Sequence record: PZ445498.1
Length of the DNA stretch: 64,000 bases
From: a phage
Reading direction: 5' to 3' (one strand)
Below the pieces are notes generated by a model. The model was given only the letters and a program-made list of their open reading frames with translations, was not told the DNA's origin and searched no databases. How positions within the stretch are numbered: position 1 is the first letter of the stretch; every line of letters begins with the position of its first letter. Below, in pieces: positions 4,487 through 64,000 of the stretch. The translations under genes were made by a program, and so were the position numbers.

Positions 4487-6820
4487 ATGAGCCATCGTAT
4501 AGAAAAAGTAATTAAACGTGACGGTACTGTTCAGGACTTTGCTCCTGAAAAACTCAATGATTGGGCTGCATGGGCATGTAAAGATACTGACGTAAGTTGG
4601 TCTGCCGTAGTTATGGCTGCCCTGAAAAATCTACCCAAAGGTGTTGTAGACTCCGATACACTCCAAGATGTGTTAATTAAAGCCGCTGAAGGTCTTATAA
4701 AAGACAATCCAGCATATGATACTGTAGCAAAGGAATTACGTCTTGCGCAGATGCGTAAACGCCTATATGATTCCTTCGAACCACCTTCTCTGCGTTTCTT
4801 CCACGATCATATGGTTCGTGTTGGCGCTTGGGAAGACATGAGTGCATGGATTAGCGATGATCAGTTTGATGCTCTGAATCAAGTTATTGATCATGATCGC
4901 GATCGTTTATTCACTAGTGGTGGACTGAAACAGTTCTTCGACAAGTATTCCCGTCGTAATATTGCAACTGGTGAAATTTATGAAACTCCGCAGTTTGCCT
5001 ACATGGGTATGGCAATGGCGATGTTATCTCAACCTAACTGGACAATTCTAGATGCAATCGACCTCTACAATGCAATGTCGCTCCACAAAATCAACGTTCC
5101 TACGCCGCCACTGGTTGGTCTGCGCTCTAGTGACCGTGGATTTGCTAGTTGCTGCCTCGTGGATTCCACTGACACGCTGGATTCAATCGACACAGCCGAG
5201 CACATCGTCTTCAAAATGGTCGCAGCCAGAGCGGGAATCGGGTATCATCTTGAAAGCCGATCAATTGCTGATCCGGTGCGAAATGGGGCATTCCCGCATT
5301 CCGGAAAACTGCCATATTATCGACACATTGACCGATCAGTAAAAGCTAACACTCAGCAAACCCGTGGCGGTTCTGCTACTGTGTCTTATCCATACTTCGA
5401 TCCTGAAATCATTCAGTTGATGCAGGTTAAGCAGCAACGTGCTACAGACGAGAATAAAATCGATAAGATGGATTACTCTCTGAGCTTTAACAACCTTCTA
5501 TTAAAACGTTACCTGAAAAACGAAGATATTACGCTAATGTCCTACTTCTACGCACCAGAAGTTCATGAAGCGTTTTATGGCGAAGATGAGGCTAAGTTTG
5601 AAGAAATCTACGTGGCAGCGGAGAAACGTGTGGCTTCTCTTACAAAGATCGACCACGAAGGAAAAACAATTCCAGCAGCTCCTAGAATCTCTGCAAAAGA
5701 AATCCTAGATACTTGGTTACGTATCCGTATGGAAACAGGGCGTATGTATGCTCATCACATTGGTGAATCTAACCGTCATGGTAACTTCCTTGACCCGATT
5801 CGTATGACCAACCTATGTGTTGAAATTACTCAGCCAACCAGGCCATTCCATCACATTACGGAGCTGTATAAGACCCAAGATCAGTTAGATGATATGCGTC
5901 CAGAAGATATTGGCGAAGTATCTCTGTGTAACTTAGGTGGAGTTGTACTAGGACGCATGGAATCTCTGGCTGAATGGGAAAAAACTTGCTACATTCTTCT
6001 GAAATTCGTTGATACCATCATTGAAATTCAGGACTATCCGTTCCCTACTATGGAATACACGGCTAAGAAGCGTCGTAACGTAGGTATTGGTCTGATGAAC
6101 GCAGCAGGTGCAATGGCAGCAGAAGGTCTGGCTTACGAAGGTGAAGAAGCCCGTAACTGGATTCACCGTGAAGCTGAGAAACTTTCTTACTTCCTGCATA
6201 AAGCCTCTGTACGTCTGGCTAAAGAACAAGGTGCATGTGACTGGTTTAATCGTACTAAACCATCCAAGGGGACTCTGGTAATCGACACGTATAAGAAAAC
6301 TGTTGATGAACTGGTAACTGTAGATCTAGAAATGGATTGGGAATCTCTGCGTGCAGATATTCTGAAATATGGTATGCGTAACTCTGTTCTGACTGCTCAG
6401 ATGCCCGGTGAAAGTTCCTCTGTACTGCTAGGTGTTACTAACTCTATCGAACCGCCTCGTAAGATTGTATCTATCAAGGGTAGTGCAGTGAATAAAGTAA
6501 TTGCAATTGCTCCAGGTGCAACTGATTGGGATACATTAATGAGTTATAAACTGGCTTATGATGTAGATCGTATCGAGTGGGTCAAATGGGTAGCAACCAT
6601 GCAGAAATTCTTCAGTCAGTCTATAAGTACGAATATGTACTATGACTACACCAAGTTTGAGAATGAAATTATTCCTGGCCCAGTAGTAGTTCGTGATTTC
6701 ATGACTGCTGTTAAGTACGGTTGGAAAACTTTCTACTATGCAAACTTTAACACCGAGAATGGTGGTGGTGCAGGGGAAGAAACTGCTGCTGGATGCGCAT
6801 CTGGTGGTTGTCAATTATAA
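4487..6820 (+). CDS. nrdA: ribonucleoside-diphosphate reductase large subunit (class Ia)
   Basis: ATP-cone start MSHRIEKVIKRDG, C-terminal Cys pair; start at the ATG after aaaggaaa RBS, downstream of promoter 4420-4448 (track start 4427 would lie inside the promoter). Confidence 0.9.
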   Translation: MSHRIEKVIKRDGTVQDFAPEKLNDWAAWACKDTDVSWSAVVMAALKNLPKGVVDSDTLQDVLIKAAEGLIKDNPAYDTVAKELRLAQMRKRLYDSFEPPSLRFFHDHMVRVGAWEDMSAWISDDQFDALNQVIDHDRDRLFTSGGLKQFFDKYSRRNIATGEIYETPQFAYMGMAMAMLSQPNWTILDAIDLYNAMSLHKINVPTPPLVGLRSSDRGFASCCLVDSTDTLDSIDTAEHIVFKMVAARAGIGYHLESRSIADPVRNGAFPHSGKLPYYRHIDRSVKANTQQTRGGSATVSYPYFDPEIIQLMQVKQQRATDENKIDKMDYSLSFNNLLLKRYLKNEDITLMSYFYAPEVHEAFYGEDEAKFEEIYVAAEKRVASLTKIDHEGKTIPAAPRISAKEILDTWLRIRMETGRMYAHHIGESNRHGNFLDPIRMTNLCVEITQPTRPFHHITELYKTQDQLDDMRPEDIGEVSLCNLGGVVLGRMESLAEWEKTCYILLKFVDTIIEIQDYPFPTMEYTAKKRRNVGIGLMNAAGAMAAEGLAYEGEEARNWIHREAEKLSYFLHKASVRLAKEQGACDWFNRTKPSKGTLVIDTYKKTVDELVTVDLEMDWESLRADILKYGMRNSVLTAQMPGESSSVLLGVTNSIEPPRKIVSIKGSAVNKVIAIAPGATDWDTLMSYKLAYDVDRIEWVKWVATMQKFFSQSISTNMYYDYTKFENEIIPGPVVVRDFMTAVKYGWKTFYYANFNTENGGGAGEETAAGCASGGCQL

Positions 6821-59492: not shown

Positions 59493-60197
59493 ATGAATCA
59501 AGTCAACATGAATATTACCCGCGCTTTCCCGCATATTTCCCGCGTTATGATTTGGGATTTAGACGGAACGATTATAAATTCTTTCCATCGTGTAGCGCCT
59601 TGTTTTGATGGCAACGGTAATTTAGATTTAGCTAAATATTCCCGTGAAGCCTGCAAACATGATTTAATTATGCAGGATTCTTTATTGCCGTTGGTTGAAT
59701 ATATGCGCCAATGTATGAATGATGCAAATACTTTAAATATTATTTGTACCGCGCGCCTTATGTCTAAAAGCGCTTACTTTTATTTGCGTAAACAAGGCTT
59801 GCGAGGGCGCGGAAATAGCAATATCCGCGTATTCTCCCGCGATACATTACACAAATACTTTGAAGCGGATAAGGTTAGCGAAATATATCATAGTAAAGAC
59901 GCTGTATACAAAAGCTATTACTTTGAACTATTTAAACAGCTATATCCGAACGCTGATTTTACGATGATTGATGATCATAAAGGCGTATTATCGGCGGCGG
60001 CAAGTGCTGGATTCAAAACACTGGACGCCCAAGCCGTTAACGATATCCTATCAATCGGCGTAGCATTGATCGGTGAAACCTTTATTGATGAATCGTTAGA
60101 TGATGATAACGATTATCAATTCCTAGCCGAACGTTTAAAAATGTGTTGGGAAGGTATGACCGAGGAAGAACGCGCGGAATATAGTACCACACCGTAA
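59493..60197 (+). CDS. dmp: HAD-family 5'-deoxyribonucleotidase (dmp-like)
   Basis: HAD motif I VMIWDLDGTIINS; position in the pre-early block as for T5 dmp. Confidence 0.6.
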   Translation: MNQVNMNITRAFPHISRVMIWDLDGTIINSFHRVAPCFDGNGNLDLAKYSREACKHDLIMQDSLLPLVEYMRQCMNDANTLNIICTARLMSKSAYFYLRKQGLRGRGNSNIRVFSRDTLHKYFEADKVSEIYHSKDAVYKSYYFELFKQLYPNADFTMIDDHKGVLSAAASAGFKTLDAQAVNDILSIGVALIGETFIDESLDDDNDYQFLAERLKMCWEGMTEEERAEYSTTP

Positions 60198-60390: not shown

Positions 60391-60636
60391 TTAGGAGGAA
60401 CACCGGTCTACCGGCTTGTCTCCTGATTCTGACATACGAAATCTCCTCCGCGACGCCCGAGATCCATCCGACCACTCTCGCTCAAACTCCGCACGTTTCT
60501 CCGCAAACCTCCGCTCTCTTTCCGAAAGCTCCCGCGATACTCCCGCAACATATTCACGATGTTTGTTAATCGCCCCGAGTGTTCCGAAGATTCCAGCAAG
60601 CACCCCGATAATGAAGATAGCTACAAAGCTAAACAT
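60391..60636 (-). CDS. small membrane protein
   Basis: 81 aa; N-terminal TM helix then charged tail. Confidence 0.4.
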   Translation of the reverse strand: MFSFVAIFIIGVLAGIFGTLGAINKHREYVAGVSRELSERERRFAEKRAEFEREWSDGSRASRRRFRMSESGDKPVDRCSS

Positions 60637-60823
60637 CTAATTCCCTCTCAAGTTGGTGAATACGTGCCCGATCATTACGTTGGGAGTCCAGTAATTTATC
60701 CATATTAATATTCAGCTGGGTGACTTTATCCTCTAGCCGCTGTATGCGATTACGGTGTGACGTCATATATCCAACAATCCAGACAAGCCATACTACAAGT
60801 GTAATAAGTCCTAACCAATCCAT
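60629..60823 (-). CDS. small membrane protein with coiled coil
   Basis: 64 aa; TM helix then coiled coil. Confidence 0.4.
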   Translation of the reverse strand: MDWLGLITLVVWLVWIVGYMTSHRNRIQRLEDKVTQLNINMDKLLDSQRNDRARIHQLERELDV

Positions 60824-61032
60824 TATTTATCTCCCCGCAGCTTACGTTCTATACGAGCTAAATGGTTATCTAAGATGCACTGCCCGATAATTACCACAAC
60901 TAGTAATGCAATAATCACTACTTCCATTATAACCACCCCGCCATAGCCGCTAACCAAAAGAGTACAAAGATAAAGAATAACACAGTTCCGAATCCGAAAC
61001 TATTTATCCAACTTTCGTACACTTCCCCACGT

Positions 61033-61311
61033 CTATTCTTTCTTCTGTCGTCTGACATCTCTTTGCTTCTCCTGTAGTCCTGGTATTTGGAATATCCTAG
61101 CAATTGCACGAACCATTATGACTGTCCCGATAAGATCCATTACTTCATCGAAGCAGGCTTCTTCTAGTAAGAAGGATGTTCCCATCACGTCTTCTATTGT
61201 ATCTTCTATGACGTCTTGAATGATTTCGTTAATTGCATCATGTATTGCTTTAGTCCTGGGATCTATTTCAAAGTTAACAGGTTCCTGAAAGGACTTTTCT
61301 TCATCTTGCAT
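61033..61311 (-). CDS. hypothetical acidic protein
   Basis: 92-aa ORF. Confidence 0.4.
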   Translation of the reverse strand: MQDEEKSFQEPVNFEIDPRTKAIHDAINEIIQDVIEDTIEDVMGTSFLLEEACFDEVMDLIGTVIMVRAIARIFQIPGLQEKQRDVRRQKKE

Positions 61312-61385
61312 TGTGTTTGCTACCTGTACCTCATCCCAGAAATAAAAATTTTTGTTTACTTCGAGATCTTTTTAATTTATACTAA

Positions 61386-61652
61386 TTACAAGTATCCAGA
61401 TTGTTCAAGATTAAATTTACAATCACCGTATTTTAAGTCGAATTGTGATAAGTCCCACCAACCGAATTTAGTACGCATCTGTACTTTAGGGAAACGATAT
61501 CCTACTTCACGAACATCTCGGATTGTTAAGCTATAGTGCTGTGCTCCGGTAGCCCATGAAGTTTTTACATAGGCTACACAAAATGGTTTAGGTTGTGGTG
61601 CACATCCAGACAACATCGTTACAGCAGCTAAAGCGATTAGTAATTTTTTCAT
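61386..61652 (-). CDS. llp: Llp-like lipoprotein (receptor-blocking superinfection-exclusion candidate)
   Basis: MKKLLIALAAVTMLSGC lipobox; small protein divergently transcribed from the receptor-binding protein gene, as described for T5 llp/oad. Confidence 0.6.
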   Translation of the reverse strand: MKKLLIALAAVTMLSGCAPQPKPFCVAYVKTSWATGAQHYSLTIRDVREVGYRFPKVQMRTKFGWWDLSQFDLKYGDCKFNLEQSGYL

Positions 61653-61735
61653 TTTAGTTCTCCAGTTCAATTTATAAATATATTATAACAAAATAATAGG
61701 AACAGAGCAACTACATTTTTAACTTAGGAGATTAT

Positions 61736-63508
61736 ATGGGTTTTTTCGCAGGAAAGTTTAGTGATGGTAAAACAGTGTTATCACTAACAAATAATAATGG
61801 TGGAGACACCAATGAGCATTACAGTCCTGGGGGTAACACAATATTTCACTCTGATATGCCCTTCGTTCTAGTAGATGGAACATATGAGGCTGCTCTAGGT
61901 AACGCTGGTAATGGATATTTTGTTTGTGCGATGCCCCCTGATATCATTAATATGAAGTCTAATGATCCTGGTAGAGTAATCCTTACTGCTATTGAGATTA
62001 ATGGTACACATAGGGGATTTCTAAACGGTACACAATCGCAGGTAGGTCAGTATCTTACTTTTGCAGAAGAGCCCTCACGAGCATTTGCTGCTGTAGGACT
62101 AAGTTCCGCCTTTGCTATTGGGGATAGTTTAGCTAGTGGTACTTATATATACAATAGTTCAATAGGTCATGAAGAATCTATAGCACGTCAAGGTACAGGG
62201 GGTACACTAATTCAGGGTTCTGATTTTGGTATAGTAAGGCCAGGTGGCTTTGTACCTGCAGGCGAAGCTATTGCGGGAGCTTATGACTTACTAGGCTTCC
62301 CTAAAGGGTCTAGTACTGTACCTTTGGATGGCGGAAATGCTAAATACTGGGATCCTAACTGGTATAACCCTATTGGGTCTGCCGGTAGGGGGCATAATCA
62401 TTTTTATGTATGTAGCTCTAACATTCGTAGCTACATCGGAAAGAAAAGAGAAGTTCCTGCGAATACCAACGTATTCTACAATCCCAGTAAACTAGTTTAC
62501 GCATGTAGAGGGTCCGCTAGTAACATGGCTAGTCAGTCTGTTAAGACCGTTTATGTTCAGGATTGGTATAATATCACTCCGACTAAAGTTATTTGGTATG
62601 TACTGAATCTACGTTACTCAAATGGTAATATAAGTGTTTCTGGAACCCCATTTACTGGCTCTGATATTCTTATATCTCCTTCAAACTTTACTATTAAAGG
62701 AGTTAGTCTCCCTAACACTGGATATAAGTTCATTAACCAGAATGCTTTTGGAAACTTGGGTTATCGTCCCGATATGGAGTATGTGGGTAATAATGCCGCG
62801 TATACTGGAGTTTTTGGCGATACAACCGCCAGATGTGAGTTCATTGGGTCTAATAATGGTAGTCTATGGTCCCCTGTAAACTATGGTGGTGCTGCCTCCC
62901 AGATTAGTATCTACAAATTTAACGCAGGTAAGCAGTGGTACGTAGATACTAATACTAACTCTATTGGTAATGAACATGGGGCTGTGTGGAGTCCAAGTAC
63001 AGTTCCTCTCCGATTATTTCCAAATAACGTGGCTAGTACATATGTTGGAGATGATATTACTCCTTCATACCCCGGTACTGGAGATTACTATCTTCCTCTA
63101 TCAACTGTTTGGTTAGGGTTACCTAACGCCCATTCTACTATCATCCTAACTAGCGAAGTTATCATGGGTAACATTAATACTGCCGGACAACCAATTCGTA
63201 CGTATGCAGGTATTGCATGGCAGGTACAGGGTAGACGTCAGCAGAGTTATACTGCAGGTGACGGAGTATTCCACCAAATATTGACTTTACCACCCGGACA
63301 TCTAGTACCCTATCATGGGACTTCTTCTTATAGCTATTGGCAAGTATGGGCTAGTAGTTCAGATATGGAGTTTCGTAGAAATGGATATATCTACACAGTA
63401 AAGAACCTTGGTAATGGTAACGTTGAGTTTGGTGTTATTATACATGCTGGATCTCAGGCAGCTGTTTTCTTACCAAGACTACGTGTAACAGTTCAACGCC
63501 TAACCTAA
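61736..63508 (+). CDS. oad: receptor-binding tail protein, pb5-like
   Basis: 590 aa; N-terminus [41 protein letters not shown] resembles the T5 pb5 N-terminus as I recall it; the rest is divergent. Confidence 0.7.
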
Positions 63509-63518
63509 AGGAGGATAT

Positions 63519-64000
63519 ATGGCAAATGATGTATTAGTTCCCGATCTAATGTCTCCCGAAGGCATGGATGTTATTGAAGCCTATTTACAGTGCGGTAGTG
63601 ATGTTCCTGCCGCCGCTCGTAGTCTTGGAATGTCCGAGATTGTATTCCGTGATATAATGAATCGTGGGGAAGTTAAAAACTATCTCAACGATATCTTTAT
63701 GGAAAGTGGCTTCCGTAATCGTGACCGCTTATTCGGAGTTCTTGATGAAGTTATCAAGCGCAAGTTGGAAGAACTCGAAGAAACTGGCATGGGTTCTGAC
63801 CAGGATATCATGGATATTCTCTGGAAGGCGCATAAGATGAAGATGGAAGAAATGAAAATGATGGTAGAACTGGAGAAAGTGAAGGCAGCAGCCCGTACTC
63901 CGGCTAACCAGACTAACATTCAGAATAATATTATTGCTGGAAGTGGTGACGAAAACTATATGAATCTTATTACCGCTCTAGCAGGAGGAGGTAAGAGATA
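63519..64000 (+). CDS. hypothetical HTH-containing protein (possible terminase small subunit), 3' partial
   Basis: ORF runs off the window end; [16 protein letters not shown] looks like a helix-turn-helix. Confidence 0.35.

Follow-up and report, generated by a model that had tools for sequence, protein, structure and literature searches.

A probable BtuB-directed host-recognition and superinfection-exclusion module in a T5-like Epseptimavirus

Described modules and the layout of the locus

The BtuB form of the host-recognition module of T5-type phages has been known since BF23. The module, in which the gene of a receptor-binding protein (RBP) lies divergent to the gene of a receptor-blocking lipoprotein, is a described hallmark of these phages (PMC8624392). 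Here, we analyze such a locus at positions 61386-63508 of a 64,000-nucleotide stretch of phage DNA (PZ445498.1), referred to below as the window. Very probably it serves an Epseptimavirus (T5-like siphovirus) as its module for host recognition and superinfection exclusion, combining an RBP that would bind BtuB with a lipoprotein that would block BtuB. Gene structure, homology, cluster membership and the close match to annotated or characterized phages were established from the sequence, and the assignment of BtuB dependence and lipoprotein-mediated exclusion draws on the literature for close homologues. The module is an ordinary, already known cassette by which a T5-like Salmonella/E. coli phage recognizes its host.

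Structures of the FhuA–pb5 and FhuA–Llp complexes have been solved for the T5 module. T5 pb5 (Oad) is an elongated monomer, four loops of which enter the FhuA lumen (L1 around Gln115, L2 around Phe170, L3, and L4 at residues 570-590), and its poorly ordered opposite end is thought to touch pb4 (PMC9586334). The outer-membrane lipoprotein T5 Llp is periplasmic and contains a disulfide between Cys11 and Cys58. It binds the plug of FhuA in a non-native conformation and causes the loops EL7 and EL8 to fold in over the site of pb5, a “jamming” that was proposed by the authors for TonB-dependent transporters in general (PMC9586334). For the module of BF23 (Hrs/Llp) and DT57C (Rbp/Llp), both BtuB use and Llp-mediated exclusion were demonstrated experimentally. 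The BtuB dependence of DT57C was found by sequencing resistant mutants, which carried btuB-inactivating mutations. DT57C Llp equals BF23 Llp but for one residue, and its leaky expression lowered the plating of the DT57C-series phages and BF23 more than 100-fold and left T5 unaffected (PMC4728585). An effect of about six orders of magnitude is attributed to BF23 Llp by Mondigler et al. 2006, in the form in which that study is cited in PMC4728585. For Yersinia phage phiR2-01 (Gp144/Gp145), a knock-out, its complementation and heterologous expression demonstrated that the phage depends on BtuB (PMC8624392). PMC8594841 describes the RBPs of Markadamsvirinae as three distinct clusters that include the known BtuB, FepA and FhuA binders, in which the cluster predicts the terminal receptor and BtuB accounts for the vast majority.

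The locus in the window is collinear with the annotated loci of vB_SenS-3, DT57C, T5 and phiR2-01. The RBP gene (61736..63508, + strand) encodes 590 amino acids (aa) from an ATG preceded by AGGAG, and the lipoprotein gene (61386..61652, − strand) encodes 88 aa with an LSGC lipobox. The divergent pair, its lipobox and its likeness to the T5 llp/oad arrangement were thus described correctly in the first-pass annotation of this DNA. The AT-rich spacer of 83 bp (61653..61735) holds both Shine-Dalgarno sites and presumably both promoters, by analogy with the T5 reference record, in which oad and llp are likewise divergent and overlapping divergent promoters are annotated between them. A promoter scan of 61200-63700 gave five promoter-like sites against 7.6 in shuffled sequence, which is not above chance, and none was assigned; a terminator scan of the same interval gave one terminator-like site against 1.4 expected, also not above chance. 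The mechanically listed open reading frame (ORF) of the lipoprotein is longer (61386..61670, −) and opens at TTG. However, the ATG at 61652 (MKKLLIALAAVTMLSGC..., 88 aa), with GGAG as a Shine-Dalgarno sequence upstream, is likely the true start, and the resulting 267-nt frame is the annotated coding sequence in vB_SenS-3, TrudiGerster, ende and other homologues. The TTG at 61670 was dropped since the ATG has a proper Shine-Dalgarno sequence and agrees with all annotated homologues.

The receptor-binding protein and its receptor class

The 590-aa protein belongs to phrog_4815, “receptor binding tail protein” (E=1.4e-259 in PHROGs, aligned over residues 1-590), and a phmmer search against PDB matched it to solved pb5 (8b14_B and 8a8c_B; E=1.8e-46) over the stretches 1-227 and 272-590. 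Full-length homology and the collinear gene layout, with the RBP gene directly upstream of the small terminase gene terS as conserved downstream neighbor, identify it as a Markadamsvirinae tail-tip protein of the pb5/Oad/Hrs family; the layout rule used for recognizing such genes is stated in PMC8594841. A Pfam scan of both proteins of the module returned only sub-threshold chance matches (KOW6 at 16 bits against a cut-off of 27, and LPAM_1 at 13.9 against 20).

The relation to T5 pb5 is one of homology end to end, with the same gene order and divergent transcription; however, pb5 has FhuA as receptor, is 31% identical, is 50 aa longer (640 aa) and has an L4 region 12 aa longer. The difference of about 50 residues and the shared N-terminus, both pointed out in the first-pass annotation, were borne out, residues 1-40 being 58% identical to pb5. 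The divergence claimed for the remainder holds in part: later 40-residue bins drop to 15-48% identity, but homology to pb5 stays detectable along the whole chain. Beyond the N-terminus, conservation is best at residues 281-360 (42-48%) and poorest at 161-280 (15-22%). The deficit consists of discrete deletions: residues 251 and 265 are followed by gaps of 15 and 10 aa, a further 12 aa are missing after residue 528, which is precisely where the L4-equivalent loop lies, and several smaller gaps measure 3-4 aa.

The RBP identity matrix was rebuilt from fetched reference loci of annotated phages, with DT57C/D1G (BF23-like), phiR2-01, S131 and S124 as class references standing in for EPS7, SPC35, BF23 and H8. 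Among RBPs of BtuB-dependent phages, TrudiGerster's shares 97.3% identity with the window RBP, that of IrisVonRoten 69%, that of DT57C 65% and that of phiR2-01 58%; within the BtuB cluster the window RBP is also 99.5% identical to the RBP of vB_SenS-3, 83% to that of bobsandoy and 80% to that of 100268_sal2. Identity to T5 pb5 (FhuA) and the S131 RBP (FhuA type) is 31% each, and to the S124 RBP (FepA type) 30%. In the matrix as a whole, RBPs of the BtuB cluster share 63-97% identity, compared to 26-34% across clusters, and the identity among FhuA-type RBPs is 94.5%. The length class also fits: BtuB-type references (DT57C, IrisVonRoten, phiR2-01, bobsandoy and 100268_sal2) have 585-593 aa, while those of FepA or FhuA type have 637-640 aa. 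The window RBP thus clusters with the RBPs of BtuB-dependent phages, outside the FhuA and FepA clusters.

From this matrix and the BtuB-dependent anchors TrudiGerster, DT57C and phiR2-01, the window RBP is placed by sequence well inside the BtuB class, which spans at least 58-97% identity to it, and it almost certainly binds BtuB. Judged on homology, it is a standard BtuB-class RBP of Markadamsvirinae and not an unusual shortened pb5, and the novelty that the first-pass annotation implied for its length disappears, 590 aa being normal for the class. The alignment proposed there, run against known RBPs, gave about 30% identity to T5, 65% to BF23-like DT57C and 97.3% to TrudiGerster. The same annotation had taken near-identity to a characterized RBP as speaking against its reading, and near-identity is what was found, with the annotated RBP of vB_SenS-3 (99.5%) and with that of TrudiGerster/Bas27, a phage listed with BtuB as its terminal receptor (97.3%).

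The anchors differ in how closely they resemble the window. TrudiGerster is the BASEL phage Bas27 (MZ501108), and S5 Table of PMC8594841 lists “BtuB” as its terminal receptor on E. coli K-12 MG1655 dRM. The methods of that paper describe spot tests of the isolates on mutants in single surface proteins, one of them a purpose-built btuB::kanR; fepA::kanR gave no phenotype with any phage. Its module (bas27_0201 / bas27_0200) matches that of the window at 97.3% for the RBP and 90.9% for the lipoprotein, with equal lengths and arrangement, although TrudiGerster was isolated on E. coli K-12 and the closest relative of the window on Salmonella. BF23 and DT57C share with the window the family, the length class (586 aa / 88 aa) and the divergent arrangement, but the DT57C proteins are 65% (RBP) and 68% (Llp) identical to those of the window and the BF23/DT57C backbone is of Tequintavirus, compared to Epseptimavirus here. 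The phage phiR2-01 is an Epseptimavirus with the same module layout and a BtuB dependence confirmed by complementation, but its RBP and lipoprotein are 58% identical each and the host BtuB is that of Yersinia.

The allele is not new; annotated GenBank entries exist for it, and it has a representative in the BASEL collection. Megablast of 61300-63600 (2301 nt) against 50,697 phage records matched 217 of them. The top record is Salmonella phage vB_SenS-3 (Epseptimavirus; MT004791), with 99.6% DNA identity over all 2301 nt, where the genes (vBSenS3_202 / _203) carry the labels “receptor-binding tail protein” and, for the lipoprotein, “putative receptor blocking protein” and are followed by the small and large terminase genes. 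Its lipoprotein is identical to that of the window and its RBP differs by three substitutions (K252N, K270N and I493S), of which the residues K252, K270 and I493 are private to the window RBP. Fifteen more records have best matches of 95-99% (vB_EcoS-26175I-V, ende, polluks, smaug, Citrobacter phage YZU-L1), and two records of TrudiGerster reach 92.6% DNA identity to the locus.

Within this near-identical subclade, eight RBPs that are otherwise 97-99.5% identical have 25 variable positions, seven of which fall within residues 537-545 (codons at 63344..63370, +) in four haplotypes. Such clustering was reached in 0 of 200,000 random placements, and in a fraction of 0.0013 when the changes private to smaug were left out. 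The pb5 L4 residues 570-590 map to residues 529-543 of the window RBP; the patch aligns with L4. The haplotypes are common to E. coli and Salmonella isolates and have no evident host correlation among the few sequences. Diversifying selection acting locally, or micro-recombination, at what may be a receptor-contact loop would fit this pattern. The pattern could tentatively be taken further, although this is doubtful, to a hot spot of such selection or micro-recombination that tunes the recognition of BtuB orthologues and variants (E. coli, Salmonella, Citrobacter) or escapes mutations in BtuB loops. If that were true, the patch would be a compact, engineerable host-range determinant within the BtuB class. 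Once a BtuB–RBP structure exists, this small L4-equivalent patch could help to direct the engineering of RBPs.

The lipoprotein and the proposed mechanism of exclusion

The 88-aa protein has a signal peptide at residues 1-16 and the lipobox LSGC, its sequence MKKLLIALAAVTMLSG being followed by C-A at the cleavage site. Cys17 is invariant in 10 of 10 homologues, and so are Cys25 and Cys78. Lipidation at Cys17 after export of the Sec/SPII type is predicted. An Ala at +2, in place of Asp, implies Lol-dependent sorting to the outer membrane, and from this residue we infer that the lipoprotein is probably an outer-membrane one. It belongs to phrog_1119, “Cor superinfection exclusion protein” (E=3.9e-21), which T5 Llp also matches (E=1.1e-19), both matches being full length. 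Identity to the window Llp is 100% for the “putative receptor blocking protein” of vB_SenS-3, 96.6% for bobsandoy Llp, 91% for the “superinfection exclusion protein” of TrudiGerster, 68% for the Llp of DT57C and IrisVonRoten (for DT57C over 88 aa, E=4e-47), 58% for the phiR2-01 lipoprotein, 23% for T5 Llp and 21% for the partner lipoprotein of S124. The protein may accordingly be described as a putative BF23-type receptor-blocking lipoprotein that would exclude BtuB-dependent phages.

The identities of Llp and RBP are uncoupled among BtuB-type phages. Between bobsandoy and the window, Llp is 96.6% identical and the RBP 83%, and between DT57C and IrisVonRoten the lipoproteins are 100% and the RBPs 74% identical. 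On sequence, this fits recombination in the spacer between the two genes, which Golomidova et al. had remarked on. It also fits an RBP and an Llp that are each matched to the receptor and not to each other. Since the identities are uncoupled, the lipoprotein would be better called cognate to the receptor than to the RBP. The proposal of the first-pass annotation, a receptor other than FhuA with a cognate exclusion lipoprotein, is thus right as biology, with a BtuB-class RBP beside a probable receptor-blocking Llp, apart from the question of what the lipoprotein is cognate to.

The signal peptide, lipobox, Ala at +2 and conserved Cys25 and Cys78 appear to parallel T5 Llp. The two proteins have in common the three-cysteine pattern and phrog_1119, but no sequence or fold similarity of the mature part was detectable in the tests run; the relation that we suggest is therefore the shared PHROG and the cysteine pattern, and mature-domain homology or a shared fold is not claimed. 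A PDB sequence search with the lipoprotein gave no match. Its AlphaFold2 model (pLDDT 82) has five strands and a C-terminal helix. The best Foldseek match of this model has E=0.13, with none below 0.1, and falls among unrelated small beta domains; it should be mentioned that AlphaFold2 modelled free T5 Llp inaccurately (PMC9586334).

In the proposed mechanism, the 590-aa RBP would sit as a monomer at the central tail fiber's tip and bind the TonB-dependent vitamin B12 transporter BtuB irreversibly, leading to DNA ejection. It would keep the pb5 architecture, with loops re-tailored to the BtuB barrel, and the N-terminal ~40 residues and residues 281-360, which stay similar between receptor classes, presumably have shared roles, for instance attachment to the pb4 fiber. 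The 88-aa protein would be exported, lipidated at Cys17 and placed in the inner leaflet of the outer membrane, as Ala at +2 suggests, and would bind BtuB from the periplasmic side, making it unusable for BtuB-dependent T5-like phages. As a result, superinfection would be excluded and the progeny spared inactivation on cell debris. For loop insertion, periplasmic plug jamming and a Cys25-Cys78 disulfide, we infer from T5, by analogy, that they may apply here. A cassette of this kind predicts that the phage needs BtuB, selects btuB-mutant survivors and cross-excludes other BtuB-dependent T5-like phages, which is relevant to the design of Salmonella or E. coli phage cocktails.

Weighing the assignment, and the surrounding genome

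Several points weigh against the assignment of a BtuB-directed module. The BtuB dependence of the window phage is a transfer from relatives (Bas27 in S5 Table, DT57C and phiR2-01). The Bas27 receptor comes from a table entry and the general method, not from raw plates, and the Fig 6C legend of PMC8594841 speaks of receptors “determined or proposed”. Sixteen substitutions separate the RBPs of the window and TrudiGerster, five of them in the loop aligned to pb5 L4 (537-542). In sequence searches with both proteins, the PDB matches included no structure of a BtuB-class RBP or Llp. Foldseek of the lipoprotein model against PDB gave no significant match, T5 Llp included, and when the alignment of BtuB-type lipoproteins was compared with T5 Llp by hhalign, only residues 1-30 were aligned, comprising the signal peptide, lipobox and second-Cys region. 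Because hhalign stops there and Foldseek has no match, a T5-Llp-like fold and plug jamming remain analogy.

One rival reading is that the subclade, made up of the window, vB_SenS-3, 26175I-V, ende, polluks, smaug, YZU-L1 and TrudiGerster, no longer uses BtuB but a different receptor, e.g., some other TonB-dependent transporter, if only on Salmonella or Citrobacter hosts. Its RBPs stand apart from the bulk of Epseptimavirus RBPs by ~17-20% in aa identity and have the hypervariable patch in their L4-equivalent loop. However, BtuB dependence is listed for TrudiGerster, which belongs to the subclade (97.3%), BtuB is used even by the RBPs of phiR2-01 and DT57C at 58-65%, and the lipoprotein is of the BtuB-blocking BF23-Llp type, at 96.6% to that of bobsandoy, which is in the main Epseptimavirus RBP cluster. 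A change of receptor in the subclade is, therefore, very unlikely.

The second debatable issue is the small ORF itself, which might be an unrelated lipoprotein gene, or non-coding, that adjoins the RBP gene by chance. The lack of a Pfam match above threshold, of a solved relative and of a fold match would agree with this. On the other hand, all BtuB-type phages examined have the ORF, at 58-100% identity and with the same divergent placement, its lipobox and cysteines are invariant, and the DT57C protein, 68% identical, has demonstrated exclusion activity, which makes a chance neighbor highly improbable.

A FhuA-binding pb5 orthologue that has lost ~50 residues would account for the full-length homology to pb5 and the conserved N-terminus, but it is scarcely credible given that the window RBP lies outside the T5/S131 cluster (31% to both, compared to 94.5% among FhuA-type RBPs), that the identity between its partner lipoprotein and T5 Llp is 23%, with hhalign covering no more than the signal peptide region, and that DT57C Llp (68% to the window Llp) gives no protection against T5. 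A FepA binder of the H8/S124 type, although the first 40 residues match the S124 RBP at 70% identity, has next to no probability, since the RBP lies outside the S124 cluster with 30% identity overall and the S124 partner lipoprotein, of 103 aa, is in phrog_16810 rather than phrog_1119.

The BtuB-directed module lies in a genome that, judged by sequence, is a mosaic of known Epseptimavirus segments. In vB_SenS-3, the neighbors of the module are as in the window, with small membrane-protein genes upstream and terS/terL downstream; elsewhere the two differ, and window positions 30000-54999 (30-55 kb) have their best near-full-coverage match at ~94% in other Epseptimaviruses (Salmonella phage 8sent65 and others), compared to 99.6% at the RBP locus. 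The small terminase subunit gene (63519..64000, +) extends past the window end and was recognized by alignment to vB_SenS-3 (terS at 5220-5702 of the fetched locus). When the window is aligned to the annotated vB_SenS-3 record, the long terminal repeat, which includes dmp (59493-60197) and the A1 gene among others, reaches to ~60337, a short way upstream of the genes for the small membrane proteins. The window runs more than 50 kb beyond the terminal repeat into early genes (phosphatase, dNMP kinase, holin, ClpP), and because the early genes continue so far beyond the repeat end, the source sequence seems to have a collapsed terminal repeat or a permuted genome.

Between the small membrane-protein ORFs and llp, a strongly acidic ORF of 92 aa is found at 61033-61311 (−). 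Its TrudiGerster counterpart also has 92 aa, the vB_SenS-3 annotation gives 103 aa, and the T5 and DT57C annotations show no counterpart at that position. Farther out, at 60391-60957 (−), there is a run of three small ORFs that overlap and encode proteins of 81, 64 and 44 aa, each with a hydrophobic N-terminus; they correspond to T5.160-162, the small single-transmembrane proteins encoded between llp and the terminal repeat in T5.

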